This document shows positions 25,626 through 51,282 of a stretch of 64,000 bases of DNA, piece after piece. The stretch's first letter is position 1; each line of letters starts with the position of its first letter. Source of the DNA: a bacterium (lineage in GTDB: Bacteria > SM23-81 > DAOVCL01); the NCBI GenBank assembly GCA_029932675.1, contig JAOZPP010000001.1:24099-88098 (forward strand), given 5' to 3'. The notes below the pieces were generated by a model. The model ran no database searches, had not been told where the DNA came from, and saw only the letters and a program-made list of their open reading frames with translations. The translations under genes and the position numbers were made by a program.

Positions 25626-25743
25626 TGATGCTCCCTCCCAGATTTTTTGACTCACCCACTGAAAGTTAAGCTTCTGATTCTAAAATATTTATGCAATTCT
25701 TGTGCCAAGCGACAGAAAACGATTTTAAGGACTTAACTGATAG

Positions 25744-25866
25744 TACGGCAAAAAGTCCAATTAAAAGCTATAACTGGTTAAGCCTCAAAATGTAACCCAT
25801 TTATTTTCAATGCGATGCATTTTGCATCTGTAGTGCCCTAGAGCAAATTTTGACTTTTTGCCGTAC
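25744..25866. repeat. 123-bp palindromic element: perfect 15-bp terminal inverted repeats GTACGGCAAAAAGTC with an inner GATGCAtttTGCATC palindrome
   Basis: Arms at ~25744-25758 and ~25852-25866, with the inner palindrome at ~25814-25828. Lies at the GC-content transition. Confidence 0.6.
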
Positions 25867-26025
25867 CATCTTAACTTACTTATTAACAAAATCATAGTCA
25901 TCCTCTCTGTAATTGTGCTTTTCTATTAAGTGCCTATTTTTAGACCACTCTGTTCTAAAAATTACCAAATCACCATACAAAATTGAGGTATCTAAACTCA
26001 ATAAGTAACACTCAGATTTTATGCC

Positions 26026-27369
26026 TTAAGAAATAAGAGATACAAAGTTTCTCAATTTGCCCGATTTTTCTCTTGGAATCAGGTTAACAAATTCATAGTC
26101 AATATTCATAGATTCACCAAAATATTGGTGAATTTTTATATCCAAATATTCAATGGTTTGCTTTGAGAAATTACTATCTTTGACTATTTCCATTTTTATT
26201 TTATTGACGGTTTCTTGATAAATCTTAAATTGCCGAATTCCCCCATCTCTATTGATTAAATCTTTTATAATGTAATCAAAAATATAGCTATGGAGATGCT
26301 TTCCATCTGGGGTAATTACTACATCGTCTGTCCTACCCACTATCTTTTCAATAAGGGGCAAACCTCTTCCGCATTTACAAATTTTACTTGAAGCCGTACC
26401 CATATCACCAATATCATATCTGATGATGGGAAAGGAGTAGTTGTTTAAATCCGTTACAATTATTTTCTTGAGATTGGCATCATTTTTTAAGTCAGTTTCC
26501 AGAAACTCGGTATAGGTACAGTCGGCCATAAGATGATGACCACCTGATGGACATTGGAAAGCTATTAGACCTGTCTCTGCGGCCCCATATTCGCTCACAA
26601 GCTGACATCCGAAAACTGACTCAATTAAATCTCTTTGAAACTCACTAATAGTCTCTGAAGTACATTTAACCATTTTGAAATTTAGAATCTTACCATTTAA
26701 AGCATTTTCTTTTATAAAAAGGGCAAATTGATAAACCATAGAGGTATAACCCGTAAGGTATTCTGGTTTTTTTCTCAACATCATTTGATAAAAGCGATTT
26801 AAAGTTTCAGGATATAAATTATATTCTTTCTCTCTAAATCTGTTAAGAAGTAAGTCCTTTGCCTTTGTTTTTAGCCTTTCCTTCCAATTTACAGGAACAC
26901 CCCACAACATAGCTTCTTTTGCACCGATATCCAAGCCATACCACCTATGCCCTCTATACATAGCGGCATTGGCATATCCTGTAGCTCTCCTATCTTTGTA
27001 AAATTCTAGAGGTATACCAGTAGAACCAGAGGTTTCAGCTAAGGTAAGAGGCTTACTATGGTTAACCGCCAACATATTTTGCACATTCTTCCTTAAAGTT
27101 TCCTTAGTTAAAATAGGAATCTTAGCGAAATCCTCTGGATTACTTATATCATTCGGATATATGTTATGTTTTTTAAACAAGTTGTGATAATAGCGCACAT
27201 TTTCATAGGCATGTTCCATTAACTTCAATAACTTTCTCCATTGCAATTCCCTAATCTCATCTGGGGAGAGCCATTGATTTTCTTCAAGTTCCTTTAAATA
27301 TCTAAATAAAGGCTCTCTGCGCAGCTTCTCAATTATGTAGAATGTAGTCTTTGCTATTTTTTGATTCAT
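26026..27369 (-). CDS. phenylacetate-CoA ligase family adenylate-forming enzyme (CapK-like, capsule biosynthesis)
   Basis: SGSTGIPLEFYKDRRATGYANAAMYRGHRWYGLDIGAKEAMLWG is an AMP-binding motif of the PaaK/F390-synthetase family. Start at ATG 27367-27369 (MNQKIAK). Confidence 0.65.
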   Translation of the reverse strand: MNQKIAKTTFYIIEKLRREPLFRYLKELEENQWLSPDEIRELQWRKLLKLMEHAYENVRYYHNLFKKHNIYPNDISNPEDFAKIPILTKETLRKNVQNMLAVNHSKPLTLAETSGSTGIPLEFYKDRRATGYANAAMYRGHRWYGLDIGAKEAMLWGVPVNWKERLKTKAKDLLLNRFREKEYNLYPETLNRFYQMMLRKKPEYLTGYTSMVYQFALFIKENALNGKILNFKMVKCTSETISEFQRDLIESVFGCQLVSEYGAAETGLIAFQCPSGGHHLMADCTYTEFLETDLKNDANLKKIIVTDLNNYSFPIIRYDIGDMGTASSKICKCGRGLPLIEKIVGRTDDVVITPDGKHLHSYIFDYIIKDLINRDGGIRQFKIYQETVNKIKMEIVKDSNFSKQTIEYLDIKIHQYFGESMNIDYEFVNLIPREKSGKLRNFVSLIS

Positions 27370-27426
27370 TGTCTCTGATGCCGTCTCTGATTCCAGCTTC
27401 TTCGCAATAGGCGGCATATAATTTAG

Positions 27427-28410
27427 TCAAGAAGATATGGTTAAACGGAGTAACAGTTTTTTGAAGTCTGCTTCCCACATTTTTTGCTTTATGGTTTTGA
27501 TATATGCAATTTCTTTACATATAGTTTTCTTCTTTTTAAGTACTGTATTTATTGATCTCGCTATGTCTGATGGAGTATTCGCTGTAAAAACTGCGCCAGA
27601 ATTAAAATAGTCCCTTAAAGCTTTCTTATCAGAAAGTATCAAAGATTTCTCAACAGCAAGTGCTTCATACATTCCACAAACCAGGCAATCTTCAGATTTT
27701 GTCAAATCCATAATCAAATCAACAGAATGAAGCATTTGAATGTATTTCTCCTCTGGAAGATAACCAGTAAAGATTACATTTGTGGGTATTTTTTCAGGAA
27801 GTTTTTGCAAGTATCTCCTGTAATTTCCAGTGATGTAAATAAATATATTTTTATCAAGTCTTTTGGCCGCACCAATTACCTCTTCTATGGGTTCATCCTC
27901 ACCAAAAGACGAGATATAAAGGATATTGTATCTCCCCTTCAGTCTAATAGGTTCGATCTTAGGAAAATGAGGTATCGGGTCCGGTAAAACAAATCCCTTG
28001 CCACTGTATTTTTCAATCTCGTTTTTGAGATTACTATTCGTTACGATGGTCAAATCGGTGTTACGAATTATGTATTTAGTTAAATTAGTCAACAAAGGTT
28101 CTCTTGAATTCAAATGGTCGATAACTGAATTATGGGCATCGACGACTGCTTTAGCTCTAGTGATTTTTTTATATATTACTGCAAGTAAAGCAAGGACGAT
28201 TGAAGGATTTTCAACAAATAAAGTCCTTGGCCTTTTTATAATAAGCAGGTATACCGTTCTAAAAATGAGAACTGGATATCTAAGGCAACGAGGACCCTTG
28301 AGATCAAATTCATACAATTTAATATTTAACCTTTCACTCAGCGAAATATTTCTGCGTTGGTGTTCCCAGGTCACCCAAATTGTTTTATCTTTCGCTTTAA
28401 AAGTTCCCAT
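27427..28410 (-). CDS. glycosyltransferase (GT1 fold, GT4-like)
   Basis: Rossmann-like two-domain pattern, with C-terminal DCLVCGMYEALAVEKSLIL. Confidence 0.5.
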   Translation of the reverse strand: MGTFKAKDKTIWVTWEHQRRNISLSERLNIKLYEFDLKGPRCLRYPVLIFRTVYLLIIKRPRTLFVENPSIVLALLAVIYKKITRAKAVVDAHNSVIDHLNSREPLLTNLTKYIIRNTDLTIVTNSNLKNEIEKYSGKGFVLPDPIPHFPKIEPIRLKGRYNILYISSFGEDEPIEEVIGAAKRLDKNIFIYITGNYRRYLQKLPEKIPTNVIFTGYLPEEKYIQMLHSVDLIMDLTKSEDCLVCGMYEALAVEKSLILSDKKALRDYFNSGAVFTANTPSDIARSINTVLKKKKTICKEIAYIKTIKQKMWEADFKKLLLRLTISS

Positions 28411-28451
28411 CTATTCATCTCTCTATTGTGTGTATTTACCCTCACCAATCC

Positions 28452-28685
28452 TTAAAACCAAGGGTTCTTTAACCTGGCAATTTGAGTAAGCAATAACAAC
28501 AACTCCTTGGCCACTTTATATCTTCCCAATTTGTTAAGATGACAACCGTCATTGGCAATTCGAATAAATTCTTGGTCGTGATCAACTTTAGGTGGTTTAA
28601 ACATCGACTCCCCCCGCTTGCAAGCTACTAAGGCTGCTGCAAGTAAAGATAACATGATAAGAAAGTCTTTTAGAAATCTATGCAT
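28452..28685 (-). CDS. small predicted lipoprotein (hypothetical)
   Basis: MHRFLKDFLIMLSLLAAALVAC has a positively charged n-region, hydrophobic core and LVAC lipobox. No homolog recognised. Confidence 0.3.
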   Translation of the reverse strand: MHRFLKDFLIMLSLLAAALVACKRGESMFKPPKVDHDQEFIRIANDGCHLNKLGRYKVAKELLLLLTQIARLKNPWF

Positions 28686-28744
28686 TTCTCCACATTACTG
28701 TACCATACCATTCTGATACCTACGGCAGGATTTATTCGCTTTCC

Positions 28745-29578
28745 TCAAGGCAACAAAAGATGAGGGCATCTGCAAATAAGCTGATTTAGATGATCAGGTG
28801 TAAGAAAAAAGTAGTTAACAGACTTGTTACCAATTAAATGTTCTCTTAGCTTGTATCCATCAAACCAGTAGGATTTGTACCCAACCTCATAGAGAATGTG
28901 TAAAAGCTCCCAGGCTGTTGAACCTTCCTTATCTGGATCCGAAGAAAGCTCGATGAGCCAAGCAGGCTTAAATCTTGTAATAATTTCTGAAGCGCCCTTG
29001 ATAACCGCCAATTCATGACCCTCCACATCACACTTAATGAACGAGACCCCCTTTTTGAAACTTGTAATCAAACTATCAAGAGATTTGAGCTTCACAGTAA
29101 AATTCCTGGAGGTGCTATCTCGTTTCTTTCCATTTACAAGCCTAGCCTGATAGAAATTAGACCCACCAAAATCATATTTAGGTACCTCCATCTTACCTAA
29201 ACCTTCTTTGTCCGAGATCGCATAATTAAAGAGCTCAACATTGGGTAGAGAAAGCCTCTTGACACACCAAGATAATATTGTGAATGTTTCTGGAACTGGC
29301 TCTATACTGATAACATGTCCCGAACTGGAAACTAAATCTGAAAGCACCGTAGTATACCAACCAACATTGGCTCCAATATCAATAACGGTTTCGCCCTTAC
29401 CTACAATATATCTAAGGATTTTTAAGTCAGGTTCGTTCCTATTCCCAAATTTCTTAAGTGAGTTAAGATAGTGTAACCTTTTTAGCCAGATTATTGCTCT
29501 ATTTGGCAATATACTCAGAAAAATCCCCTTAAGTTTTCGCTCGATTGGCATGTCTTTCACGAATCTAATTTGACTCAT
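28745..29578 (-). CDS. FkbM family methyltransferase
   Basis: VIDIGANVGWYTTVLSDLV...ISIEPVPETF is a FkbM signature. Confidence 0.75.
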   Translation of the reverse strand: MSQIRFVKDMPIERKLKGIFLSILPNRAIIWLKRLHYLNSLKKFGNRNEPDLKILRYIVGKGETVIDIGANVGWYTTVLSDLVSSSGHVISIEPVPETFTILSWCVKRLSLPNVELFNYAISDKEGLGKMEVPKYDFGGSNFYQARLVNGKKRDSTSRNFTVKLKSLDSLITSFKKGVSFIKCDVEGHELAVIKGASEIITRFKPAWLIELSSDPDKEGSTAWELLHILYEVGYKSYWFDGYKLREHLIGNKSVNYFFLTPDHLNQLICRCPHLLLP

Positions 29579-29586
29579 CTATAGGC

Positions 29587-30738
29587 TCAAATTGTATTAT
29601 GCTTAACTAAAAGTTCGCTATAAACCTCTTCATATTTTTGGGTCATAACTTCTGCCGAAAATTCATTTAACACTAATTGGTAACCTCTATCAGCCAATTC
29701 ACAAGATTTTTTCTCATCACCAAGAAGTTCAAGAGTAGAATTAGTCAAAGCATCTACATCTTTGGGTTCCAATAAAATACCAGTTCTTCCGTTCTGAACA
29801 ATTTTTGAAACGGCTCCTACATTAGTAGCAATTACCGGAACTTTTGCCGCTAATGCTTCAAGAACAACCATCGGTAATCCTTCATCAAGAGAAGTGGAAA
29901 CAAAGAGATCTATTGTATTATATATTTCATTGATGTCGCTCCTTACTCCAGTGAAAATCACTTTGCTCGCAATACCCAAATTTTCAGTTAACCTTTCTAA
30001 ATCTTTCCTCAATATCCCATCCCCCACTATCAAAAAGATAACATCGTTTCTAATAGCTAATACACGCTTAGCAGCCTGAAGTAGATATTTATATCCTTTC
30101 TGCTCAGTTAGACGCCCCACAGTTCCCACTATTTTGCATCTTTTTTCATCTATCTGAAATTCCTTTATAAGTTTTCGTGATTTCCTATCGTTTGAGGTGA
30201 ATTTCCCTGTATCAACTCCATTATAGATAGTCCGTATTTTCACATCCGAAACCCCTCTATCTAACAAATCCTGATGAATGGCATCTGACACCGCTATTAT
30301 CTTATCGAAAAACTTGAGAGTAAGAGAATCTATTGCTCTATAAAAGGCCATTTTGCCGCTTTTGTTTGGCCACAGGTGGTCAGTAGAAATCAATTTGAGT
30401 TTTAAACCCACAGATGCGAGTAATCCTATGAGATTTGCTTTATAATCATGGCAGTGTAATATTTTAATCTTGTTGGTCTTTATGATCTCTCGAACTGCCT
30501 TAACACAGGTTAAGTCATACGGAGACCTCAAATCAATCCTGAAATTAGTGATATTCAAGTTCTCCGCGTAGTCCAACATCTCTACTCTTTCATCCCTTGG
30601 ATCTTTGAAGCAAAGGACTATAGGTTTAAACTTTCGTGGGCTGGCAAACTTTGTCAAAGCTAAAATTACATTTTCAGCCCCAAATAATCCACCACTACTT
30701 CTCAAATGCATTATATTAACCATATAGATCTTAGACAA
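29587..30738 (-). CDS. glycosyltransferase family 4
   Basis: EGLPMVVLEALAAKVPVIATNVGAV is a GT4 C-terminal motif. Confidence 0.8.
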   Translation of the reverse strand: MSKIYMVNIMHLRSSGGLFGAENVILALTKFASPRKFKPIVLCFKDPRDERVEMLDYAENLNITNFRIDLRSPYDLTCVKAVREIIKTNKIKILHCHDYKANLIGLLASVGLKLKLISTDHLWPNKSGKMAFYRAIDSLTLKFFDKIIAVSDAIHQDLLDRGVSDVKIRTIYNGVDTGKFTSNDRKSRKLIKEFQIDEKRCKIVGTVGRLTEQKGYKYLLQAAKRVLAIRNDVIFLIVGDGILRKDLERLTENLGIASKVIFTGVRSDINEIYNTIDLFVSTSLDEGLPMVVLEALAAKVPVIATNVGAVSKIVQNGRTGILLEPKDVDALTNSTLELLGDEKKSCELADRGYQLVLNEFSAEVMTQKYEEVYSELLVKHNTI

Positions 30739-30750
30739 TCTATGTTGCAG

Positions 30751-31893
30751 CTAAGTTCTGCTTGAGGGTTCCCACGCAGCAAATTTCTTTCCGCATAGCA
30801 GCTTTATCCACGCAGAAAGAATTGCTAAATTAGAAATAAAGAAAAAAAGTGGAATCTTGTAGATAGCTGAGAGTTGTTTCCCTTCCTTCTCTCTGATGTA
30901 GCCAAAAATAGTCAGGGCAAAAAAGAGAAGTTGGATTAGAAAAATCAACACATAGAAAATACTATTTTTCTCACAAAAAGTCAAACACATACTGCTGAGG
31001 AAAAAGATTATGTATAAAAATGGGACAACCCATCTCATCAGTTTATGACTTAGTAGTTGGATAGAGAAAAAACCATACCTCAAGGGGTTCAATAGCTCTC
31101 TCTTAGCGACTAATACCCTCAGCCCCCTTGCTACTGTCCTCACCTTTCTTTGAAACTCTGCGGTTGAGGAAGAAAGAACCCTATAGTATCCTATTGCTTG
31201 ATGATCAATAATACTTCGGTACCCTTTCTTGACAGTTGACAAAACTGCAAGGAAATCACTAGGTAGTTCCGATGGCCACTCTTGACATAGTCCCTTGCGT
31301 ATTACAAAAAATGAACCACTTAATCCCACCAAAGAGTAGATTTTACTTTCCAATTTTCTCAAGAACATCTCGTATCTTACATAAAAGCCTTCACCTTCTG
31401 ATTCGGAATTTAAAATTTTATCTACACTACTTACACAGCCAACTGTTCTGTCATTGAAATTTCTTACTATATTGCGAAGAGCATCCTTATTTAGCATTAT
31501 GGAAGCATCGGTGAGAACCAATATTTCTCCTTTGGCCTCCTTTATCGCTTCCCTTTGAGCGGATTCTTTCCCTCTTCTTTCTGGTATGGAAATGAGTTTA
31601 ACTCCTCTCTTTTCAAATTCAGAAACAATTTCGTCTGTTTTATCATCTGAGCAATCAGAGGCAACTATTATCTCAAGTTTATCTTCAGGATAATCTTGAG
31701 ACAGGCTATTTTCGAGCTTTTCTCGGATAACTTTTTCTTCATTATGAACTGCTATAATCAAACTAACATCAGGGAAAATATCTGCCTGTTCGACATCTTG
31801 GTGCTTGAAAAGGGAAACAACCATCAACAGCAAAGGATAACCTAAGTAAGCGTAAAAAATGCCAAAAGCCGACAGCCAAAATAACCATTTCAA
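30751..31893 (-). CDS. membrane-anchored glycosyltransferase family 2 (processive-GT2-like topology)
   Basis: N-terminal TM, then VSLIIAVHNEEKVIREKLENSLSQDYPEDKLEIIVASDCSDDKTDEIV. C-terminal TM helices. Confidence 0.75.
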   Translation of the reverse strand: MKWLFWLSAFGIFYAYLGYPLLLMVVSLFKHQDVEQADIFPDVSLIIAVHNEEKVIREKLENSLSQDYPEDKLEIIVASDCSDDKTDEIVSEFEKRGVKLISIPERRGKESAQREAIKEAKGEILVLTDASIMLNKDALRNIVRNFNDRTVGCVSSVDKILNSESEGEGFYVRYEMFLRKLESKIYSLVGLSGSFFVIRKGLCQEWPSELPSDFLAVLSTVKKGYRSIIDHQAIGYYRVLSSSTAEFQRKVRTVARGLRVLVAKRELLNPLRYGFFSIQLLSHKLMRWVVPFLYIIFFLSSMCLTFCEKNSIFYVLIFLIQLLFFALTIFGYIREKEGKQLSAIYKIPLFFFISNLAILSAWIKLLCGKKFAAWEPSSRT

Positions 31894-31972
31894 ACTTTGA
31901 CCTCCTATATCTCATTCTCATTAGACAGGATTTACCGGATGATCAGGATAATAGAAAATCAATTTAGTAATA

Positions 31973-33208
31973 CTACCCAAAATCTATAAGAAACTTAAAG
32001 ATAGACTCTATATCCGTGCTGGTGACATATTTATGTGTAGGTAAGGTCAAAATTCTTTCCGCCAAGAATTTCGCCTGGGGGCAATTTACTGCATTGCCAG
32101 CAAGATATTTTCCAATTCGAGGGATCTCAGCGATGGATTTTGGATACATCGTGGAGGCCCCTAAACCCGAACTGGAAAGAGTTTTATATAGTTTCGACCG
32201 CAAGCTCTCATTCTTAAGGATCAATGGAAATCTAAGGTAAACGGGATCGCCATTCTCAATTGGCAAAGGATATGAAATATTCTTGTTCTGTTTAATCCTC
32301 CTCATTATCAAATCAGCGATCCTTTTCCTCTGCTGATTAAGTCCATCTAACCTTTCTATTTGAGATATACCCAGAGCTGATTGGAACCTGCTGGGTTTTT
32401 GGATTTTGAAATTAGGATCAAATTTGGAAACACCCAATTGAAGAAAAGGCAATTTTTCGGGGAACCAATAGAGCCGAGGGCGAAGAAACGCCGAATACAG
32501 CAAAGCCTTGATGAGAAACTCTACATCTTTCAGTAATCCCGCTTCTGGTAACTCCAATAGGTATTTCTCAATTAACGATGCAATCCTATCGGAATTGGTG
32601 ACTATAACTCCTCCTCCCAGAGTAGTAACATTTTTCCCTCTGCCCAGACTGAAGAAGCCTACATCCCCCAAGGTCCCACAGCATTTCTCCTCAATCTTTG
32701 CTCCAAACGCCTGAGCAGCATCATCAACCACAAACACATTGTTGTGCTGAGCTATCTCACAGATTCTCTTTAGATCACTGGGCAATCCAAATAGGCTGCT
32801 GGGAACAATACAGAGGACATCACTGTAGTCTGTCCCCTTTAGCTTCTCGTAATCAAAGTCCAAGGTTTTCAGATCAATATCGCACAATTTGATTTTTAAC
32901 CCGGCTCTGACAATCGCTGAGGGGACAGAAAAACAGGTATAAGCGGGGATTAGAGCTATATTCCTATTTTTATCGGCTAATTGTGAAAGAGCTTTCAATA
33001 TAAGGGTAAAACCGGCTCTACCGGAGGAAACTAAGAAAACATATTTGACTTGTAAGTAATCCCTTATCTCCTTTTTAAATCTCTCTCTGCAGGATTCCTT
33101 GGAAAAATAGAATTTTAAACTCTCCAATATCTCTTTGATAGCAATTGGTGTTCCTGCCGGCGGAAGGGACTTGAACATTCTTCTCCATCTATAGCTGACT
33201 TTATTCAC
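31973..33208 (-). CDS. DegT/DnrJ/EryC1/StrS family PLP-dependent sugar aminotransferase
   Basis: VVDDAAQAFGAKIEEKCCGTLGDVGFFSLGRGKNVT (Lys in GKN) is a family motif. GTG start listed, and the true start is uncertain. Confidence 0.7.
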   Translation of the reverse strand: MNKVSYRWRRMFKSLPPAGTPIAIKEILESLKFYFSKESCRERFKKEIRDYLQVKYVFLVSSGRAGFTLILKALSQLADKNRNIALIPAYTCFSVPSAIVRAGLKIKLCDIDLKTLDFDYEKLKGTDYSDVLCIVPSSLFGLPSDLKRICEIAQHNNVFVVDDAAQAFGAKIEEKCCGTLGDVGFFSLGRGKNVTTLGGGVIVTNSDRIASLIEKYLLELPEAGLLKDVEFLIKALLYSAFLRPRLYWFPEKLPFLQLGVSKFDPNFKIQKPSRFQSALGISQIERLDGLNQQRKRIADLIMRRIKQNKNISYPLPIENGDPVYLRFPLILKNESLRSKLYKTLSSSGLGASTMYPKSIAEIPRIGKYLAGNAVNCPQAKFLAERILTLPTHKYVTSTDIESIFKFLIDFG

Positions 33209-33236
33209 ATCGAAAGTTCCAATACCATTAACTCAT

Positions 33237-33472: not shown

Positions 33473-33485
33473 CCCTGTTACACTA

Positions 33486-34045: not shown

Positions 34046-34061
34046 TTCATTAACATTTATT

Positions 34062-34233: not shown

Positions 34234-34242
34234 GTTTCCAAG

Positions 34243-40361: not shown

Positions 40362-40403
40362 CCGTTTACCTCCGTGAATTGAGGGAAAAGGCCAAAGGAG
40401 TTT

Positions 40404-41843: not shown

Positions 41844-42047
41844 AAGAATCTATCCAAATTATGTACCGAATTCACAGCAACCCCGAGGAAAATCTCACAC
41901 CCAAATTGTTCCTCACCGGAGGTGCCATGTCTCTATCGAAATACAGCAAAAACGCTAAACGGTATGGAAAACACCATCGCTCGACTTTCAGGCACTCGAA
42001 AATGTTGATTCTCACGCTCTATTTGCATCAATCGCCTATAAGGTCAA

Positions 42048-42076
42048 TTGACCCCTAGTCGAGGATGTGTTATATT
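42048..42076 (+). promoter_or_regulatory. sigma-70-like promoter TTGACC-N17-TATATT embedded in 12-bp perfect palindrome GGTCAATTGACC
   Basis: -35 at ~42048-42053 and -10 at ~42071-42076. AAAGGGGG RBS and ATG at 42107. The palindrome is at ~42042-42053. Confidence 0.45.
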
Positions 42077-42106
42077 GGCTTGAACTTCTCAACCAAAGGG
42101 GGTCAA

Positions 42107-42916
42107 ATGAAGACTAACACACTCTTTGACAGAATGTCACCGAAGTCCCTGAGTGGCTTAATGGCCTCTCACTTTCAACACCAGTATAGGCTATCTCCTC
42201 AAGCAGCCAAGACTATCTGCCATGATGCAGTGTTATTTCGCAATCTCTTAGGTCAGCCAGCAAGGAGTGAGGGACAGATCCTCTATTATGCTGTCAAGCT
42301 GGGGGAGCCACCCAGCAAGCCCATTAAGGACTGTCAACTCCTCCCGGTGAAGCTGACTGTGTTTGACCCTGATGATCTTGACTACCGCAGAAGGTATGGT
42401 CAGAGGAGGCTGCTGGGATATATTATGATCCGCATCTGCCGGGAGGCCTATGAGCAGGGAGCAGTGTTGAGCATTGAGGATGTTGCCTCTATACTCCACA
42501 TCAGTGAAAGCACTGTGAAGCGGTATAAGAAGGCCTTAAGCCTTGCGGGTACTCCCCTGATCCTGCGGGGTGATACCGCTGATATGGGGCCGGGCACCTG
42601 CCATCGGGTTCCCATCGTTGAACTCTTCCTGCAGGGCTACTCAGAGACCGAGGTTGCCCAGAGGGTCAACCATAGCTTAGAGAGGGTGGAGGCCTATCTC
42701 TACGATTTTTTGCGGGTCTCCCTGCTGCTTGCCGATGGCTATAGCCCTGGTATGGCCTCCCGGATTGCCCATCTGTCCAAGGGCAAGGTCTCCTCTATCA
42801 GCCAACTGTATCACCGCTTGGCCCAGGATGCCTTCTACCAGGAGCCTCTGGCCAAGGTCTTGCAGCTCTACCAGTTGAGGCGGGACCTGAAAAAAGGAGG
42901 ATCTCCAGATGAGTGA
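42107..42916 (+). CDS. hypothetical protein with two predicted helix-turn-helix motifs (paralog A; DUF1670-like)
   Basis: HTH1 GAVLSIEDVASILHISESTVKRYKK. DMGPGTCHR box. HTH2 LQGYSETEVAQRVNHSLERVEAYLYDF. Paralogous to the next gene, with higher GC than the flanks. Confidence 0.6.
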   Translation: MKTNTLFDRMSPKSLSGLMASHFQHQYRLSPQAAKTICHDAVLFRNLLGQPARSEGQILYYAVKLGEPPSKPIKDCQLLPVKLTVFDPDDLDYRRRYGQRRLLGYIMIRICREAYEQGAVLSIEDVASILHISESTVKRYKKALSLAGTPLILRGDTADMGPGTCHRVPIVELFLQGYSETEVAQRVNHSLERVEAYLYDFLRVSLLLADGYSPGMASRIAHLSKGKVSSISQLYHRLAQDAFYQEPLAKVLQLYQLRRDLKKGGSPDE

Positions 42917-43709
42917 CCATTTCCCGCGGCGCCACTACAAGGCCGTCTATGGTCCCTTGGCTCAGAAGACATTGCACAACCTGCTGAAGCGAGAGCTTAT
43001 GGAGGAGTTTGGCTTTGAGAGTATGGGGTTGATTGCCGATGCCTTAATCAACCGCTTGCTGGAGCTGGTGGATACCTACACCCCTGAGCACTTCAGGCTC
43101 CTTCCTGGTCAGATGCTCTGGTTGGCTGTGGCCCGACAGGAGAAGGTGGGATATGGCAAGTCTATGTTGAGAAGCAAGTTAGTGCCAGTGATAGTCACAG
43201 TGATCAGTGCTGAGGACCTGGAAGCAATGGCAGAGGAGAGGGTTGACTTCAGAGAATTGAGACCCAAGGTAGTGGCTCGCATTCTTAAGGAGACTGATGC
43301 TCAAGGTGGGGTGCTGGCCTTAAGTGATGTGGGGATTATGCTGAGCATCAGTCCGGCAGCGGTCTCCTCTGCTGTCAAAGCCTACCAGGCAGAGCATCCA
43401 GGTGAGGTCTTGCCTTATCGAGGCACCTTGCATGATATGGGACCGACTATGACCCATAAGTTGCAGGCCATAGAATTGAAGCTCCAGGGATGCTTAACCC
43501 AGGAGATTGCCAGACGCATCCATCATGACCCTCAGAATGTGGACATCTACCAGACAGACTTTGAGAGGGTCTACCAGTTGTACCAGGATGGCAAAACCCC
43601 TCGCCAGATCAGCTTTCTGACCAAACTCTCCCTACATCTGGCAGAGGAATATATAGAGCTGATCAACAAGTATGTGGCTGAGGATGACTCATCGGTGTCA
43701 AAGAGCTAA
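42909..43709 (+). CDS. hypothetical protein with two predicted helix-turn-helix motifs (paralog B)
   Basis: GGVLALSDVGIMLSISPAAVSSAVK, DMGPTMTHK and LQGCLTQEIARRIHHDPQNVDIYQTDF align with paralog A. The start overlaps the upstream stop (ATGAGTGA), indicating translational coupling. Confidence 0.6.
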   Translation: MSDHFPRRHYKAVYGPLAQKTLHNLLKRELMEEFGFESMGLIADALINRLLELVDTYTPEHFRLLPGQMLWLAVARQEKVGYGKSMLRSKLVPVIVTVISAEDLEAMAEERVDFRELRPKVVARILKETDAQGGVLALSDVGIMLSISPAAVSSAVKAYQAEHPGEVLPYRGTLHDMGPTMTHKLQAIELKLQGCLTQEIARRIHHDPQNVDIYQTDFERVYQLYQDGKTPRQISFLTKLSLHLAEEYIELINKYVAEDDSSVSKS

Positions 43710-43878
43710 TGTCAAGTGGTCGGAACTGCCCACCTTATATTAGCTGGATAGCATCAGGGGGGCAACTGGAGAGGTGGACAGTGGAGACCACTCCACACTT
43801 CTTTGAGCAAAAGGGGGAAAACCCTCACAAAGCTTTAATTTGGCTAAGTAATCCCTCTCAGTTAACCGAGACTGGGGT

Positions 43879-44880
43879 TCAATTGACACTATCGCTTGTT
43901 TCAGAAATTGCTACCACTAAGCTTCGGACAAAATAGGCTAATGGTTCATTGCCTGCACAGACCCTTCTAAGTAAAAATAAATTAGATCCCTTGCTTACAT
44001 GCCCAAATTCTGCTGTGCAAGCATAGCGGTAACCCCTCTTAGCGACTAGTTCCTTCACCTTTTCATTGTAATGTTCGTTTAACCCAATAGGATAACAAAA
44101 CCCTGTAACGGGCTCGTCTAACTCTTCTTCGATTTTTTCTTTCGAGGCTTTAAGCTCTTCCTCAACTTCTTCCTCAGAAATGGTAGTTAAATTGTAATGA
44201 TTCACCGTGTGAGAACCAAACTCTATGCCATCCTTATGCATTTCCCTTATTTGCTGCCAGGAAAGCAGGCGGGCTGTTCGCTTTGGCCTGATGGTGGACC
44301 TTAACTCAGTGCGTAGTTGCTCAAGTATGTGGCGAATTTCAGCATCTTTAAGTCTTGCCAGGTATTTTTCCACCTCAAAATTCTTCCAGGTTGAGAATTC
44401 CACTTGCGGCATCTGCCTCTTTAAAACTGAACCAAGCTTTTCTCTAAATTCTTCGTGAGGAGAAAATTCCCCCATCCCTCGAATTTCATCCCACCAGAAC
44501 ACCTTGTCTGTCTCAATATATCCGGTAACCAAGAAAACTGTAGCTGGGATGCTATACTTCCGTAGTATTGGGAATGCAATATTATAAACGCTTTCGTAAC
44601 CATCATCAAAGGTTATAGCAATAGCCTGGGGGGGAAATTGTCCCTTTCCCCTAAGAGAATCTACTAATTCGTTCAACGAAATGGGATACATATAATCTTG
44701 CAGAAACCGCATTTGTTCCTCAAATCTGTTTCTCCAATGGGTGGTTATGTTATGATACATGAGAATAATCGCTCTGCTTTTCCCTTCTCTATGCAGAAGC
44801 CGATGATAGTAACCGAATTTATATGCTAAAGGAACTATTGTTTTTCTGGCGATGGATTTTACTACAAACTTCTTTACCAT
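43879..44880 (-). CDS. polysaccharide deacetylase (NodB-homology domain)
   Basis: AITFDDGYESVYNIAFPILRKYSIPATVFLVTGYI...FGSHTVNHYNL. Confidence 0.7.
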   Translation of the reverse strand: MVKKFVVKSIARKTIVPLAYKFGYYHRLLHREGKSRAIILMYHNITTHWRNRFEEQMRFLQDYMYPISLNELVDSLRGKGQFPPQAIAITFDDGYESVYNIAFPILRKYSIPATVFLVTGYIETDKVFWWDEIRGMGEFSPHEEFREKLGSVLKRQMPQVEFSTWKNFEVEKYLARLKDAEIRHILEQLRTELRSTIRPKRTARLLSWQQIREMHKDGIEFGSHTVNHYNLTTISEEEVEEELKASKEKIEEELDEPVTGFCYPIGLNEHYNEKVKELVAKRGYRYACTAEFGHVSKGSNLFLLRRVCAGNEPLAYFVRSLVVAISETSDSVN

Positions 44881-44964
44881 AGTTAGGTATATGTGCAGAG
44901 AATAAGAACAGGGTGAAACAAAAGACTTCCACTCCTCTCGTTTCCTCTGTTAGCTAAACTTTTT

Positions 44965-46062
44965 CTATGATCTTCTTATTATCTTAGTCTGATAAAAAAG
45001 CTTAAGTTTTTGGCTCAGCTGGACTCGCATGCTTTCGAAACTACTTCTATAAATTGTCATACTCAAGTTCACTCTTGCCTCTTTGGCCCAGTCGAACTTG
45101 TATTCTTCGTCACCACGCAAGAAATCAAATTCCTTCGCACCTTCTAAGATCGCATTCTCAATGCAATAACTGAACAACAAGAATCCGGGGCTTAGCTTCG
45201 CCCACTGCGGGTCAAAGCCGGCCTGATAATAGTAATACTTGCCGCCGTATGCAAAGGTATACATTGAAGCTATAGGTTTGCTCCCTATCTTTAAAAAACA
45301 GAGCCTCAACCAGTTCCTTTTGAAGAATAACCACATCATGTTTCTGTGGAATTCAGAAAATAATTTGTCCTGAAATGGACCGCGCAAACTCCTCTCACGC
45401 ATCCTACTTGTATTCAGCCTTACCAAATCGTTAAATGATTGCTTAAACTCACTGTCCTTTTTTAGAAGGGTGAACTCGCCATCGAATTTATTTTCGAACT
45501 TGTTCCTCTTCCGTTTTATGTTGTACCTCATACTTGGGCTGAGCGATTTAAGGTAGGATTCATAATTGGAAGGCAAGTGCACATAGGGACAAACAGCTTG
45601 CAACCTCGTGAACAGATACCAATCACGATTACAGTATCTGTGAATTAACCATACAGTTTTTGACCCAGCCGGAATGTCAGTAAGCTCGATAGCCCGCCAC
45701 TTAGGTTTCCGTGCGTTTAGATAGTCACGAATCTGAAAAAGGACCTCCGACTCATTCCCATCCTCTATTATGAAGTCTAAATAGTCAGAACCAACAGATG
45801 TTGAGCCCAAGAACTTTACTACACTACCACCCATCACTTTATTTTTAAGTAAGAAGAATGGTGCAATGCCTTTTAGTCTATAACCATCCCGAATGAGCAA
45901 TATCATTAACTCCTTGCCATCTTTGAAGCACTTCCACCAATTATATAGCCAATCCCAAGTTAGAAACAAGACATTTGATTTACTTCTCAACAGCAGTTCG
46001 TTCCACTCATCTCTCAAACCGTAAAAACCTTTATCTGTTCTTATTTCCTCAACTGTAGGCAT
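44965..46062 (-). CDS. GNAT-fold acyltransferase (FemAB/BioF2-like)
   Basis: About 365 aa. Family-level resemblance to exopolysaccharide-locus GNAT acyltransferases. Confidence 0.5.
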   Translation of the reverse strand: MPTVEEIRTDKGFYGLRDEWNELLLRSKSNVLFLTWDWLYNWWKCFKDGKELMILLIRDGYRLKGIAPFFLLKNKVMGGSVVKFLGSTSVGSDYLDFIIEDGNESEVLFQIRDYLNARKPKWRAIELTDIPAGSKTVWLIHRYCNRDWYLFTRLQAVCPYVHLPSNYESYLKSLSPSMRYNIKRKRNKFENKFDGEFTLLKKDSEFKQSFNDLVRLNTSRMRERSLRGPFQDKLFSEFHRNMMWLFFKRNWLRLCFLKIGSKPIASMYTFAYGGKYYYYQAGFDPQWAKLSPGFLLFSYCIENAILEGAKEFDFLRGDEEYKFDWAKEARVNLSMTIYRSSFESMRVQLSQKLKLFYQTKIIRRS

Positions 46063-46123
46063 TCTTTTGCACAGGATAATTTTATTCCACCTGCGTGGAT
46101 TTTATCTCGCTCTCTTAAGTGGG

Positions 46124-47482
46124 TCAACCGTTAGACCCTTTGACTCCCAGTGATCTGCAAAACTTAGAGAAAACCCTCCTGACCTTAGCAGATAGAAAAC
46201 CTGTTATTGAAGTTAAAAATGGTATTATGTCATCCCAAGCAAAGACAGCCCACTGCTTCTTCCCCAATGTTGAACGAAGCCAGCCCAGTAAGGAAATCGA
46301 GCCCTCTTTTCTATAATCCAAAAATGCGTTAAAGTCGAGAGAAGTCGAAAGCCACTTTATTCCAGTTCTATAAGAGAGATTGGAGGATACTCTTTTCCCA
46401 ATTGTGTCGCAGTAAGCAATATAGGCAAGGTTTACTCCACATCTGGTTCCCAACACATCCCAAAGGCCAAAGCGGGTATTGAATTCAATGAGTTTGAATT
46501 TGCCATCCCTTGAATCCAGTTTAAATTCCATACCACCCAACCCATTATACCCTATATCCTTCAGAAATTTGATACTAATCCTTTCCAGCTCCTCTTCGTA
46601 CACAGATTCAACAAAACTCGCACTGCCGAAGTGAATAGGGTTTAAACGCAGCTTTCTACCGGCGAAGTGACCTAATACCTTGTGAGTTTTAGAGATGTAA
46701 AATACAAAATAAAACAAGTCACTATCATCCCCTGGAATAACCTCTGAAATGATTACATTTGGGTCATAGACTGCAATTCTGCTATAGAAACTTAACAGTT
46801 CGCTACTCTTTGAGATGACAATGACTTTTCCCCATCCGCCCAGGATTTTTCGTATAGACTCTCTGTGCCATGAATCTGACCTCACTGGCTTAATGATACA
46901 GGGATAGGATATCTTTGTAGCTATCTCCCTAACTTCACTTAGGGAATTGGGAATGTATGTAACAGGAACTGGCACATTGAACTCAACGGCTGTTCTATAA
47001 AGTGCGTCCTTTGTAGTCAACTTTTCAATTGTGCTATGCTGGGGCCCAGTAAATAAAAAGAAGTCCTCTAAAATATTTTCATACTTGGCATAGCATAAAA
47101 CGGTGTTGTCCCCGGTAGGGAAGAGAACTGGTTTCTCTCCTAAAGTCTTGCTTAGACTAATCAAGTATTCTATATGTTCATTTTCATTTGATTCAACAGA
47201 GGGACAGATCTTACTTTGACAGTAGCGAGAGTTCATGCCTATTTGCTTTGGATTGGGATCCAAGGCGTATACTGGGATACCTTGTCTACCCAGGGACCTA
47301 ACGATCCCCAGCCCCGAGTAAGACATATAAGTTACCACCGCTGGTGGGTATCGGGAACCACTTTCCCTATAGATAGATTTAGGAGTCAACCGCGAAATAG
47401 GCTCCAACTCCACTGTGGACAAGCTATTTGCCTTGTCTGGGTAAACTTCTTTTTCTTGCATATCCCATAAGTATCTTCCCAT
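46124..47482 (-). CDS. ATP-grasp domain enzyme
   Basis: PPAVVTYMSYSGLGIVRSLGRQGIPVYALD N-domain plus C-terminal ATP-grasp features (EFNTRFG). Start uncertain (47482 or 47461). Confidence 0.6.
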   Translation of the reverse strand: MGRYLWDMQEKEVYPDKANSLSTVELEPISRLTPKSIYRESGSRYPPAVVTYMSYSGLGIVRSLGRQGIPVYALDPNPKQIGMNSRYCQSKICPSVESNENEHIEYLISLSKTLGEKPVLFPTGDNTVLCYAKYENILEDFFLFTGPQHSTIEKLTTKDALYRTAVEFNVPVPVTYIPNSLSEVREIATKISYPCIIKPVRSDSWHRESIRKILGGWGKVIVISKSSELLSFYSRIAVYDPNVIISEVIPGDDSDLFYFVFYISKTHKVLGHFAGRKLRLNPIHFGSASFVESVYEEELERISIKFLKDIGYNGLGGMEFKLDSRDGKFKLIEFNTRFGLWDVLGTRCGVNLAYIAYCDTIGKRVSSNLSYRTGIKWLSTSLDFNAFLDYRKEGSISLLGWLRSTLGKKQWAVFAWDDIIPFLTSITGFLSAKVRRVFSKFCRSLGVKGSNG

Positions 47483-47895
47483 TAAGTAACCTCATTTTCA
47501 CCCAGAAATAGTCAAACCAGGTTAACGATAATATGACGAGGGATCTTAACAACCGGGGCAGGTTTAATGACCTACTAACTTCCTCCGAAAAAGCACCAAA
47601 GTTGTGAACTTTTTTAATGTCAAACAGATTTTCTATGACGGTAAGCATCTCCTCGCCCGTGCTGTTCTCGAATGAAGTATCTAACTCTTGGTTTTCTCCG
47701 CTAACACCGTGCAGCTTACTTCTTCTTAGCAAGTACTTGTAATAAGCAGCATTTAACATATTCTTTAAACTCTTCAGCCTCCTTGAGTAGGACCAGGTTA
47801 GCGGGAAACAAGCATTAACAACCCGAATTATTCATGAACTGAAAATGAATTGGCATAAATTTTTCAAGGCCAATGATTTGTGTATTTGTTTCGTA

Positions 47896-47991
47896 GGGAC
47901 AGACATTTATGTCCGTCCGCTTCCTCGAACTCCCTACAGCAAGAGACCTCAGCGATTTAAGAGGTGCTGTGAATTTATGAATAATCCGGGA
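47896..47991. repeat. left copy of a ~100-bp inverted repeat pair (partner at ~49867-49968)
   Basis: GGGACAG...CGCTTCCTCG...TCCCTACAGCAAGAGACCTCAGCGATTTAAGAGGTGCTGTGAATTTATGAATAATCCGGGA. Includes the last 5 codons and stop of the methyltransferase gene. Confidence 0.6.
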
Positions 47992-48424
47992 CAATAACTT
48001 CGAGGCTCTGACTTACTTTGGTTTTAAAGGTCCCTCCTTTTCCTCCCCAAATTCGCTCAGAAAAAAGGAACCATCCGCCCGGTTTTAATGAATGAAAAAT
48101 CTGCACACAAAGTCTCTCAATTTCCGGAATATGATGTAAAGCATCCCAAGCTGTAACCAGATCATATTTGTTTGGAGTTAACTCGTATTTATTCAAATCC
48201 GCCACAATCCAGTTGATTTTCCCTAGGGGTTTTTGCTTCAGTTGACTATGATATTTTTTAGCTACGTTGATTTCCCTTTCACTACAATCCACAGCATCGA
48301 CAATTTTCCCGGCCCATGCCATTTCTAAACTCAGCCACCCTGCACCGCGACCAAGATCAAGCGCTCTATCCCCGCGGCATCCCCTGGCAAACAGAGTCAA
48401 GGTTCTCCGAAATAAGCTCCTCAT
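47975..48424 (-). CDS. class I SAM-dependent methyltransferase
   Basis: Motif I ALDLGRGAGWLSLEMA. Start moved to ATG 48422-48424 (MRSLFRR) because the upstream in-frame extension to 48589 would overlap the ACP gene by 224 nt in another frame. Confidence 0.5.
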   Translation of the reverse strand: MRSLFRRTLTLFARGCRGDRALDLGRGAGWLSLEMAWAGKIVDAVDCSEREINVAKKYHSQLKQKPLGKINWIVADLNKYELTPNKYDLVTAWDALHHIPEIERLCVQIFHSLKPGGWFLFSERIWGGKGGTFKTKVSQSLEVIVPDYS

Positions 48425-48626
48425 CCTCAACCTGAATGCCAAATGTCTCCTCGACGAAGGAAACCAATTCGAGAACTCCAGTTGAATCGATGATCCCCTT
48501 TTCCAGAAAGGAATCATTGTTCTTAAGCTTATCTTGGTTGTGTCCAAACGGGAAATTATCAAAAATGAATTTTCTAATCTGTTCCTCAATGGACATCTCT
48601 GCTTCTCCTGCAGAAGGGTTCAACAT
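48366..48626 (-). CDS. acyl carrier protein-like
   Basis: 85 aa with GIIDSTGVLELVSFVEETFGIQVEDEE, an ACP-type phosphopantetheine-attachment helix (DSxG). Confidence 0.55.
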   Translation of the reverse strand: MLNPSAGEAEMSIEEQIRKFIFDNFPFGHNQDKLKNNDSFLEKGIIDSTGVLELVSFVEETFGIQVEDEELISENLDSVCQGMPRG

Positions 48627-48684
48627 AAAGAACAGGGATTAAACCGTTCAAGTCGTTTGGCCGTTTAAATAGTTCACAACCAGC

Positions 48685-49524
48685 TTAAGGAAAATTGGTA
48701 TTCCTAAGCACCTCCTCTACCGGGGCGAATTCAAAGTCCCGGAGAAGTTTCTTGATTTTAATCTCTGTCACATCTAAGTTGGTGTAAGTCCGGAACTTAC
48801 TCAAAAATTTAAGCTCAACCTTTGGGGGAGTGGGATCTATCTCCCAGGGGTGGAAATAGATAATGGCCGGTTTACCCTCTGAATTAATCTTCCTTATCCC
48901 CTTCTTCACGAACCAATATGGATAAATCCTCAAATAGCCTCCGCCAGCTATGGGCATATTTCTTCCCCACAGCCGATAGGTGGACAAGGGAAATTCGAAG
49001 AATCTCTTCCCACTCTCCAGCTTCACTCGATAAGGGAAGCGCGGAGCGGTGGGGACTCCATACCTATCGTGGAGGATAGGAAAGACGCTGGAGTCATATT
49101 CAAATCCCAATTCGCTTAGAATATCCCAAGCCCAAAAGGTATCAACTGTTATGGAAAAGCTTGGTGCTCTGTACCCCCTAACCTTCACTCCGGAGACCTT
49201 TTCAATCGCCTCCATTGCCCTGGTTACATCTTCTCTAAACTCCTCTTTGCTCTGTTTATAGATTAACCGATGGGCATATCCATGGGTGGCTATCTCATGC
49301 CCTTCCTCCTTTATCTTAAGGACCAGCTCTGGAAATCTTTCGGCAATCCAACCGAGAACGAAAAAGGTGGCTTTTGTCCTTTTAACATTCAACAATTTTA
49401 AGATGTGAAGGAGGTTAGCCTCCACCCTGCTCTCACACTTATCCCAGTTCTTATATCCTATAACCTCATCGAATTCAGAGGCCTGAAACCAGTCCTCCAC
49501 ATCTATGCTAAGGGCATTCTTCAT
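48685..49524 (-). CDS. polysaccharide deacetylase family protein (PEP-CTERM/exosortase-locus subfamily type with DUF3473-like C-terminus)
   Basis: LSIDVEDWFQ...ATFFVLGWIAERFPELVLKIKEEGHEIATHGYAHRL...GYRAPSFS. Confidence 0.7.
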   Translation of the reverse strand: MKNALSIDVEDWFQASEFDEVIGYKNWDKCESRVEANLLHILKLLNVKRTKATFFVLGWIAERFPELVLKIKEEGHEIATHGYAHRLIYKQSKEEFREDVTRAMEAIEKVSGVKVRGYRAPSFSITVDTFWAWDILSELGFEYDSSVFPILHDRYGVPTAPRFPYRVKLESGKRFFEFPLSTYRLWGRNMPIAGGGYLRIYPYWFVKKGIRKINSEGKPAIIYFHPWEIDPTPPKVELKFLSKFRTYTNLDVTEIKIKKLLRDFEFAPVEEVLRNTNFP

Positions 49525-51232: not shown

Positions 51233-51282
51233 TTTACCTCAATGCGATGTTAACGACCAATAGTCAATATACAATAATTAAT

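Follow-up and report, generated by a model that had tools for sequence, protein, structure and literature searches.

A low-GC tract as the probable variable biosynthetic center of an exosortase-type exopolysaccharide locus in the uncultured SM23-81 lineage

Results

Composition and limits of the low-GC tract

A 64,000-nt stretch of contig JAOZPP010000001.1 (assembly GCA_029932675.1, positions 24,099 to 88,098 of the forward strand) from an uncultured bacterium of the SM23-81 lineage, hereafter referred to as the window, contains a tract of low G+C content (GC) that is rich in genes for polysaccharide synthesis. The initial annotation of this sequence had described the part between 25.7 and 49.5 kb as an AT-rich exopolysaccharide (EPS) island of about 24 kb, with a small palindromic element marking its left boundary. 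From the analysis reported here, the AT-rich stretch is likely to be the lineage-variable biosynthetic middle of one exosortase-type (XrtA-like) EPS locus, spanning approximately 19 to 62 kb, and not an island delimited by the palindrome. All coordinates given are positions in the window, and L-numbers denote the fetched loci or contigs used for comparison.

The interval 25656-49524 has a GC of 0.401, compared with 0.483 (4.3 to 19 kb) and 0.468 (49.5 to 64 kb) in its flanks. Codon bias relative to the backbone averaged 0.463 for 14 genes between 25.7 and 42 kb and 0.291 for 21 backbone genes (Mann-Whitney P = 7.6e-6), bearing out the low GC and shifted codon usage noted initially. The sharp edges placed at about 25.7 and 49.5 kb were upheld only in part. 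Likelihood segmentation of the window returned six GC change points, at 3870, 18950, 25640, 41880, 43800, and 50070. The one at 25640, which is 16 bp from the left edge of the proposed island, is a step in GC from 0.421 to 0.380 and has the lowest log-likelihood ratio (LLR) of the six (16.7), whereas the edges of the main low-GC tract are at 18950 (LLR, 69) and 50070 (LLR, 43). The right edge is gradual, with a ramp in gene GC through 0.41, 0.42, 0.44, and 0.454, and the last gene of the interval (48685-49524) has a GC at third codon positions (GC3) of 0.53 and backbone-like codon usage. Inside the interval, backbone-like codon bias (B) was found for the XrtA-system deacetylase (B = 0.220) and FemAB (B = 0.298) genes, and the segment 41881-43800 is GC rich (0.52). 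A second AT-rich patch, at 1-3870 (GC, 0.365), encodes a GT2 glycosyltransferase and a Wzy-like protein, indicating that AT-richness tracks glycan genes generally.

Gene content of the locus

Gene families were assigned by Pfam and NCBIfam profile searches of the open reading frames (ORFs) of the window (Table 1). With an exosortase and EpsI encoded at the left, XrtA-system genes inside, and export and regulatory genes at the right, the AT-rich interval is best placed in the middle of one exosortase-type EPS locus, approximately 40 kb in size. The top matches of GT4 and Wzy-like proteins from the interval were also XrtA-associated families, with scores below the cut-offs. Rfam, applied to the whole window at gathering thresholds, detected no RNA family.

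Every gene listed for the interval in the initial annotation was recovered by these searches, namely, a CapK-like ligase, four GT4-type glycosyltransferases and one GT2 glycosyltransferase, an FkbM methyltransferase, a DegT aminotransferase, two FemAB-like GNATs, Wzy-like and Wzx proteins, two deacetylases, an ATP-grasp enzyme, and an acyl carrier protein (ACP). Absent from that list were a flippase-like LPG_synthase_TM protein, a class-I methyltransferase, and a DUF4258/zinc-finger pair of toxin-antitoxin type; the interval also encodes two DUF1670 proteins. The description of this set as a complete Wzx/Wzy pathway was not borne out. Among the scanned ORFs of at least 100 amino acids (aa) in the window, no match to a priming sugar transferase (PF02397 or PF00953 type) was found with Pfam or NCBIfam, and the chain-length/kinase (PCP) and outer-membrane exporter (OPX) genes are located at 50498-56305, outside the proposed island.

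Judging from their families, the five glycosyltransferases would assemble a lipid carrier-bound repeat unit, which may be decorated by the DegT aminotransferase, the FkbM and class-I methyltransferases, and the two deacetylases, with the CapK-like ligase, ACP, ATP-grasp enzyme, and two FemAB-like transferases forming a putative acyl- or aminoacyl-adding set. Wzx would then flip the unit, the Wzy-like protein would polymerize it, and export would proceed via the conserved chain-length/kinase/Wza module at the right; a priming transferase would have to be encoded elsewhere.

Comparison with relatives

Scanning of species-representative genomes with the XrtA-system deacetylase gave a best identity of 55%, with matches in several phyla, and identified no close relative. 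A metagenome scan with the tyrosine kinase returned relatives at 85 to 89% identity, comprising L083, which is from a 154.8-kb metagenomic contig, and a group formed by L082, L084, and L088. The right flank of L083 is collinear with the window, and its proteins are well conserved up to and including the tyrosine kinase (Table 1); across L083 and the L082/L084/L088 group, right-flank proteins are 65 to 89% identical to those of the window. Conservation breaks in the 973-bp spacer that follows: the deacetylase (48685-49524), which is the first gene after the kinase in the window, shares the same low identity with its counterparts in L083 and L084 (58%). An epimerase gene with no homolog in the window lies near this junction in both relative lineages (L083 and L084), and L083 also carries genes for an AAA ATPase, a nucleotidyltransferase, a DUF5678/aspartyl-protease pair, and a 276-aa methyltransferase that have no window homolog. 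L084 has two GNAT-like genes at the position where L083 has the methyltransferase and ATP-grasp genes; these two loci share approximately 85% DNA identity over the kinase, epimerase, and deacetylase genes and have nothing in common beyond the deacetylase. For the right half of the locus, then, the comparison with relatives that had been proposed as a check, made here with L083 and L084/L088, found that gene content is not conserved left of the kinase. After the kinase, the GC of L083 is 0.37 to 0.41, and its equivalent part is as AT rich as that of the window, which suggests that genes of this class are AT rich as a lasting trait and do not bear the signature of a fresh donor.

In the more distant L089 and L090, the kinase, deacetylase, FemAB, and GT2 genes occur in a row, with 38 to 53% identity to the window compared with 47 to 55% for the flank; as these values are on a par, the core genes appear to belong to the system. 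The GT2 protein encoded at 30751-31893 is 40 to 44% identical to the GT2 protein that follows FemAB in L089 and L090 and to the one that follows the kinase in L087. These comparisons are read as a conserved system core with variable additions, with turnover mainly to the left of the kinase. The flank with the regulatory and export genes would be inherited conservatively, and the biosynthetic part would turn over in both content and sequence, with low GC in every variant seen. Exact-protein look-ups returned only the Logan contigs L001 and L168 (SRR21545388), which are 100% identical to the window and, as they represent the same genome, carry no information on variation. For the left flank, an exosortase search of the protein collection returned the query itself followed by proteins of no more than 50% identity, and relatives found with RibD (73 to 79% identity) were all on contigs of no more than 2.6 kb.

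The kinase-deacetylase spacer of L083 holds approximately 5.7 kb (L083 positions 10737-16410), including the AAA ATPase, nucleotidyltransferase (AbiEii/DUF6036-like), and epimerase genes and the DUF5678/aspartyl-protease pair, and resembles a hot spot at which small accessory genes collect.

Weighing of alternative explanations

Recent acquisition of a discrete island of approximately 24 kb (25.7 to 49.5 kb) as a whole from an AT-rich donor, with the palindrome as the integration junction, would account for the low GC and shifted codon usage, for a change point at 25640 that adjoins the palindrome, and for genes that are not conserved in relatives; in the O-antigen literature, atypical GC is taken as a sign of transfer (PMC3715488). 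Such an event is nevertheless judged improbable. No detected step is weaker than the one at 25.64 kb, and the tract begins at 18.95 kb and fades gradually to the right; the two XrtA-system hallmark genes within the proposed island have backbone-like codon usage; and the equivalent region of L083 is equally AT rich. No integrase was found among the scanned ORFs of the window, and no tRNA or tmRNA gene was found in it. No repeat joins the two borders of the interval, the palindrome being without a match at the right end, and the palindrome has inverted ends and a 6-bp duplication of its own and lies ahead of a sigma-54 promoter. Of the horizontal acquisition proposed initially, the variable Wzx/Wzy block that relatives do not conserve is retained and the foreign, self-contained island is not. 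Little weight is likewise given to an explanation without any exchange, by which the region was inherited vertically, is AT rich owing to the kind of genes it contains (membrane proteins, low expression), and evolves fast. AT-richness common to L083 and to the unrelated GT2/Wzy patch at 1-3.9 kb is in keeping with this explanation, as are the same order of deacetylase, methyltransferase, and ATP-grasp genes in the window and L083 and the identities in L089 and L090 that are on a par with the flanks; however, gene content differs among the window, L083, and L084/L088 (the epimerase, a nonhomologous methyltransferase, and the GNAT-like genes), and one intergenic spacer separates a protein of 89% identity from one of 58%, an abrupt drop.

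Several observations also weigh against the favored explanation, a single exosortase-type locus with a variable biosynthetic middle. The exosortase scored just below the cut-off of the XrtA-specific model (TIGR03109; 200.0 bits, cut-off of 208), with the XrtW and XrtD models giving similar scores that are far below their own cut-offs. The chain-length, kinase, exporter, and regulator proteins also fell below the XrtA-specific cut-offs (TIGR03007, 186.7 against 278.85; TIGR03018, 117.7 against 230.65; TIGR03027, 117.9 against 180; TIGR02915, 429.4 against 502.6), although scores for generic families exceeded their cut-offs (TIGR01007; 140.4 against 108). A six-frame scan of the window for the C-terminal PEP/hydrophobic/basic pattern returned no credible ORF for a PEP-CTERM substrate protein. 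For the left side no relative was found, and the putative variability of the exosortase region rests on its composition and on the lack of a homolog above 50% identity. The divergence from L083 is compatible with either replacement by recombination or rapid divergence in place. Finally, the polymer chemistry is predicted from gene families and the function of the sigma-54 promoters and their upstream motif from sequence, the motif having been spotted by eye.

Sigma-54 promoters and a shared upstream motif

Using the pattern TGGCAC-N5-TTGCW, the whole 64-kb window was scanned for sigma-54 promoters. Only two matches without a mismatch were found (TGGCACAAGAATTGCA and TGGCACAGATTTTGCT), and both are intergenic, on the coding strand, and at the head of an operon. 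The motif TGCAAAATGC likewise has only two exact sites in the window, located 116 to 119 bp upstream of the two perfect promoters. L083 (positions 4272-4431) keeps TTGCATATACTTTGCA-N6-TGCAAAATAC and TGGCACACATTTTGCT at an unchanged distance, within a spacer whose remainder cannot be aligned, and the composite of sigma-54 promoter and TGCAAAATGC occurs nowhere else in the 2.28 Mb scanned (fetched loci and window). TGCAAAATGC is a probable activator site, and transcription of the locus would depend on at least these two promoters. The promoter at 25.7 kb would head an operon extending from the beta-helix protein gene to the exosortase and EpsI genes, and the promoter at 56.66 kb would head the export module, both presumably being served by the sigma-54 activator of the locus itself. 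In PEP-CTERM/EpsH loci, a PrsK/PrsR-type two-component system has been described together with an activator site and a sigma-54 motif (Haft et al. 2006, PMC1569441), and the layout seen here appears to mirror the one reported for PEP-CTERM genes. A sigma-54-like site at 49993-50008 has two mismatches in its -12 element and no upstream TGCA motif and is not claimed as a promoter.

The palindromic element at 25.7 kb

The palindrome reported initially was confirmed to have perfect 15-nt arms (25743-25757 and 25852-25866), and these extend to inverted ends of 19 nt (GATAGTACGGCAAAAAGTC), of which 18 positions match (25739-25757 and 25852-25870). The ends are abutted by a 6-bp direct repeat, TTAACT (25733-25738 and 25871-25876). 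The center of the element is GATGCAAAATGCATC, which contains one of the two TGCAAAATGC sites (25817-25826), and the predicted fold has an energy of -47 kcal/mol (z = -5.5). A search of the window for the arms, allowing up to three mismatches, returned only the two arms and one chance-level match; no second copy was present in the 175 fetched loci, and the exact-arm pattern had 0 matches in JGI metagenome contigs. Owing to its inverted ends and flanking duplication, the element is best read as similar in origin to a miniature inverted-repeat transposable element (MITE). Its role as the marker of an island boundary was not substantiated, as it shows the insertion signature of a small transposon and is located in the promoter region of the next sigma-54 operon. 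From the positions of palindrome and promoter, the composition step at 25.7 kb would mark where the biosynthetic block ends and meets a sigma-54-dependent operon. An intrinsic terminator was considered and rejected for the palindrome, which has no U-tract; a consensus scan found no terminator in 25656-26025.

It is possible, although doubtful, that the palindrome is native and regulatory, serving as enhancer region for the sigma-54 promoter at 25692-25707, with the 6-bp repeat present by chance. The distance of its central TGCAAAATGC from a perfect sigma-54 promoter, which is the same as at the export-module promoter, fits such an origin, and so does the lack of a second copy in the collections searched. 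However, no long inverted repeat of this kind accompanies the export-module promoter, the arms bear no resemblance to the conserved upstream motif, and 19-nt inverted ends abutted by a perfect 6-bp repeat are a classic transposition footprint.

A DUF1670 unit resembling an insertion sequence

By its ends, contexts, and copies, the DUF1670 pair at 42 to 44 kb is an insertion resembling an insertion sequence (IS) and not part of the polysaccharide pathway. The unit has imperfect inverted repeats of approximately 22 nt at its ends (TATAAGGTCAATTGACCCC at one end and GGGGTTCAATTGACACTATC at the other) and encodes two overlapping paralogous DUF1670 proteins (42065-42916 and 42909-43709) that share 36% identity. 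Similarity to a 95% identical copy in L166 stops at 43893, and copies in L162 and L164 (68 to 71% DNA identity) start at the base matching 42037 and have unrelated flanks. Distant DUF1670 pairs, in L169 and in L170, L173, and L174 (Anaerolineales), have inverted ends of their own that are 1.7 to 1.8 kb apart, and the inverted ends co-vary with the protein lineage. A 5-bp repeat is found beside the unit when its ends are set at C-TATAG...GACACT: ATCGC in the window (42031-42035 and 43891-43895), ATCTT in L162, and a match at four of five positions in L169. As ATC follows every right end, these bases may belong to the element instead of representing a duplication. The insertion point of the unit is right at the stop codon of a deacetylase gene (43879-44880), and the gene gains three codons from it. 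In L162, the element is inserted inside a tract of GATCTnn heptamers.

The DUF1670 family has 1,672 representatives at an E value of no more than 0.001 (approximately 1,700 clusters at 50% identity), some of them proteins with two to four matched stretches. The two paralogs of the unit have multiple helix-turn-helix (HTH) regions and invariant Asp, His, His, Tyr, and Arg residues. Among the best 120 homolog clusters, only four included any contig of at least 5 kb, compared with 55 of 120 for RibD. Nearly all homologs are on contigs of approximately 2 kb, as a repeat that breaks assemblies would produce. No recognizable transposase domain (DDE, serine, tyrosine, or HUH) was found in the unit; searches of its proteins against PDB sequences, PHROGs, and PADLOC returned nothing useful and no significant match to a solved structure, and no mention of DUF1670/PF07900 was found in the literature searched. 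The unit looks like an undescribed insertion sequence. We tentatively suggest, without favoring it, that it is an autonomous IS of an undescribed family transposed by the two DUF1670 paralogs; a lesser companion to this suggestion is that the exosortase operon acquired its sigma-54 activator site with the palindrome. The dual-HTH cassette that had been assigned to the island is this insertion, which also occurs in unrelated contexts.

Other repeats and small cassettes

Arrays of short period were found at 21660-21693, 23049-23386, 31925-31949, 33231-33478, 34065-34089, 35293-35325, 39188-39221, and 50120-50145 and also at 15961-15985, with none in shuffled sequence. The repeated unit is either a 9-mer with ATCCTGT in it or one of two 7-mers (ATCGTnn and ACCTnnn), and the arrays occupy intergenic spacers of the low-GC tract; L083 has related arrays at 5705-5737, 12241-12371, and 14355-14420. 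The initial annotation had confined the repeat family and the dual-HTH cassette to the island. This is contradicted by the arrays outside it (15961, 21660-21693, 23049-23386, and 50120-50145), by a palindrome that is single copy, and by a DUF1670 pair that represents one insertion.

The zinc-finger and DUF4258 genes that resemble a toxin-antitoxin pair (Table 1) are bracketed by direct repeats (33236-33302 and 34061-34127; 67 nt at 87% identity or 53 nt at 92%) that start with the ATCCTGT 9-mer arrays, as would be seen if recombination at the repeat had brought the cassette in. The low-GC tract would also have collected small mobile or selfish elements: the MITE-like palindrome, the DUF1670 element, and this toxin-antitoxin-like cassette. 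An inverted repeat of 84 nt (47916-47999 and 49860-49943; 86% identity, with a 61-nt core at 95%) encloses the methyltransferase, ACP, and XrtA-system deacetylase genes. The possibility that its arms bound an invertible or mobile segment was considered; the arms showed no unusual folding. The independent short-read contig L001 terminates within both arms, where a short-read assembler would break anyway.

Flanking features

The gene for the four-helix-bundle protein (22652-23071) has the secreted fn3 protein gene on one side and the exosortase gene on the other and is preceded by an array of GGTAGAA-type heptamers (23049-23108). Over 96 bp at their 3' ends (15962-16057 and 23163-23258), two secreted-protein genes (1023 and 270 aa) are 77% identical in DNA sequence; these ends encode C-terminal domains of the FlgD_ig/CHU_C type and overlap ACCTnnn heptamer arrays. 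In the export module, the STAS-domain (anti-sigma antagonist) protein has a long Glu/Lys-rich linker, and its C-terminal segments weakly match the HTH regions of IS3/IS481 transposases. At 62080-63807, a 575-aa ORF fuses an IspH (LytB) domain (residues 1-280) to a region weakly matching UbiA-type prenyltransferases (approximately residues 337-539); the usual fusion partner of IspH is ribosomal protein S1. The patch at 1-3870 is probably a lipopolysaccharide core or O-antigen region. Its Wzy-like gene is of the Wzy_C (O-antigen-ligase-like) type and, with the GT2 gene, has as neighbors genes for a PfkB kinase, a heptosyltransferase, and a CDP-alcohol phosphatidyltransferase-like protein, the last of which straddles the change point at 3870.

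Table 1. Features of the low-GC tract and its surroundings in the 64,000-nt window
Feature	Position	Strand	Evidence or remark
Low-GC tract, putative variable part of EPS locus	18951..50070		GC 0.38-0.42 apart from DUF1670 insert; change points, gene GC/GC3
Multi-pass membrane protein, 484 aa	19251..20705	-	No family match
EpsI, exosortase-associated	20897..21538	-	TIGR02914, 124 bits (cut-off 42.8)
Exosortase (EpsH family, XrtA-like)	21746..22582	-	TIGR02602, 215.4 bits (cut-off 105.55)
Four-helix-bundle protein (23S rRNA IVS/Avd-like)	22652..23071	-	TIGR02436, 87 bits; PHROG Avd
Secreted fn3 protein	23121..23933	-	FlgD_ig/CHU_C C-terminal domain
Secreted right-handed beta-helix protein (Pel9A-like)	23943..25655	-	First gene of sigma-54 operon
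Perfect sigma-54 promoter	25692..25707	-	37 bp upstream of start codon at 25655 (beta-helix gene)
MITE-like palindromic element	25733..25876	.	132-bp noncoding body (25739-25870); AT-rich intergenic spacer
CapK-like/F390-synthetase-type adenylate-forming ligase	26026..27417	-	NCBIfam PaaK/F390-type; CapK_C; last gene of biosynthetic block
Glycosyltransferase	27427..28410	-	GT1/GT4-type C-terminal domain
FkbM-family methyltransferase	28745..29578	-
GT4 glycosyltransferase	29587..30738	-	Top NCBIfam match XrtA-system TIGR03088, under cut-off
GT2 glycosyltransferase	30751..31893	-	C-terminal membrane segments
DegT/DnrJ/EryC1 aminotransferase	31973..33208	-
Small cassette bracketed by direct repeats	33236..34127	-	YgiT-type zinc finger, 33486-33725; DUF4258, 33722-34045
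FemAB-family XrtA/PEP-CTERM-system protein	34243..35274	-	TIGR03019, 349.6 bits (cut-off 260.35)
Wzy-like/O-antigen-ligase-like polymerase	35469..36878	-	PF04932, 78.6 bits; TIGR03097, 155.9 (below cut-off of 188.1)
Flippase-like LPG_synthase_TM membrane protein	37006..38028	-
GT4 glycosyltransferase	37994..39112	-
GT4 glycosyltransferase	39222..40361	-
Wzx (MOP) flippase	40404..41843	-	PF13440, 264 bits; NF007773
IS-like DUF1670 insertion, about 1.86 kb	42036..43893	+	GC 0.52, GC3 0.63; opposite strand; ends from L166, L162, and L164
Polysaccharide deacetylase (PgaB/IcaB-like)	43879..44880	-	Last three codons and stop codon within IS end
FemAB-like GNAT (Acetyltransf_6)	44965..46062	-
ATP-grasp enzyme	46124..47482	-	40% identity to L083 counterpart
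Class-I SAM methyltransferase	47975..48589	-	Probable true start, 48424 (149 aa, the call in L001)
Acyl carrier protein	48366..48626	-
XrtA-system polysaccharide deacetylase	48685..49524	-	TIGR03006, 375.7 bits (cut-off 276.2); backbone-like composition
Noncoding spacer, 973 bp	49525..50497		84-nt repeat arm, 49860-49943; heptamer array, 50120-50145; segment shared with L083, 50244-50351
Conserved export module	50498..56305	-	65-89% identity in L083
Tyrosine autokinase	50498-51232	-	89% identity in L083
TPR protein	51404-52552	-	81% identity in L083
STAS-domain protein	52578-53717	-	65% identity in L083
Chain-length determinant	53717-55285	-	73% identity in L083
Wza-like exporter	55361-56305	-	86% identity in L083
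Second perfect sigma-54 promoter	56661-56676	-	Ahead of exporter gene; TGCAAAATGC (56789-56798) about 119 bp upstream; both conserved in L083
Two sensor histidine kinases and sigma-54-dependent response regulator (AtoC/NtrC/PrsR type)	57106..61810	+	L083 identity: kinases, 78% and 75%; regulator (60422-61810), 89%

Discussion

The main use of these results is for annotation, and they caution that AT-richness alone cannot date a transfer. Two by-products of the analysis may matter more than the main finding: the DUF1670 pair, which behaves as a transposable unit without a recognizable transposase, and the layout of sigma-54 promoter and TGCAAAATGC, which provides a testable candidate signature for a regulon of the exosortase system in this lineage.

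Like known MITEs, the palindrome is a noncoding unit of 132 bp with 19-nt terminal inverted repeats, a 6-bp flanking duplication, and a strong hairpin. Unlike them, it is known from one copy (in the window, the fetched loci, and the exact-arm JGI search), has no parent IS identified, and carries a probable sigma-54 activator site. The DUF1670 unit differs from bacterial IS elements in that domain searches found no DDE, serine, tyrosine, or HUH transposase domain; it is similar to them in its size (1.7 to 1.86 kb), inverted ends, unrelated flanks, and assembly-breaking behavior.

With PEP-CTERM/exosortase loci under PrsK/PrsR/PrsT regulation, the region shares an exosortase and EpsI, an XrtA-system deacetylase and FemAB protein that score above curated cut-offs, a chain-length/kinase/exporter module, a TPR protein, histidine kinases, a sigma-54 response regulator, and sigma-54 promoters with a conserved upstream site, the last likeness being one of layout. 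It is distinguished from such loci by exosortase, export, and regulator proteins that fall below the XrtA-specific cut-offs and by secreted proteins adjoining the exosortase that carry C-terminal domains of the FlgD_ig/CHU_C (T9SS) type. ORF scans of the window also returned neither a PEP-CTERM protein nor a PF02397 sugar transferase, the priming family typical of PEP-CTERM/exosortase-type loci (PMC1569441).

The feature itself is of an ordinary kind, the variable low-GC biosynthetic center of a polysaccharide locus. In O-antigen clusters, the GC of the glycosyltransferase, wzx, and wzy genes is very low, at 28 to 37% in a genome of 51 to 52%, and segments of intermediate GC adjoin them (PMC3715488). 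The region described here differs from O-antigen and capsule clusters in being part of an exosortase locus from an uncultured lineage, in having no priming transferase found in the cluster, and in being known from its genes alone. It resembles the Wzx/Wzy-type clusters of, for example, Salmonella (PMC3715488) in its segments of intermediate GC and in its conserved flanks and variable center. An uncultured lineage would thus arrange its exosortase-type EPS locus in the manner of an O-antigen or capsule locus, which is expected rather than surprising.

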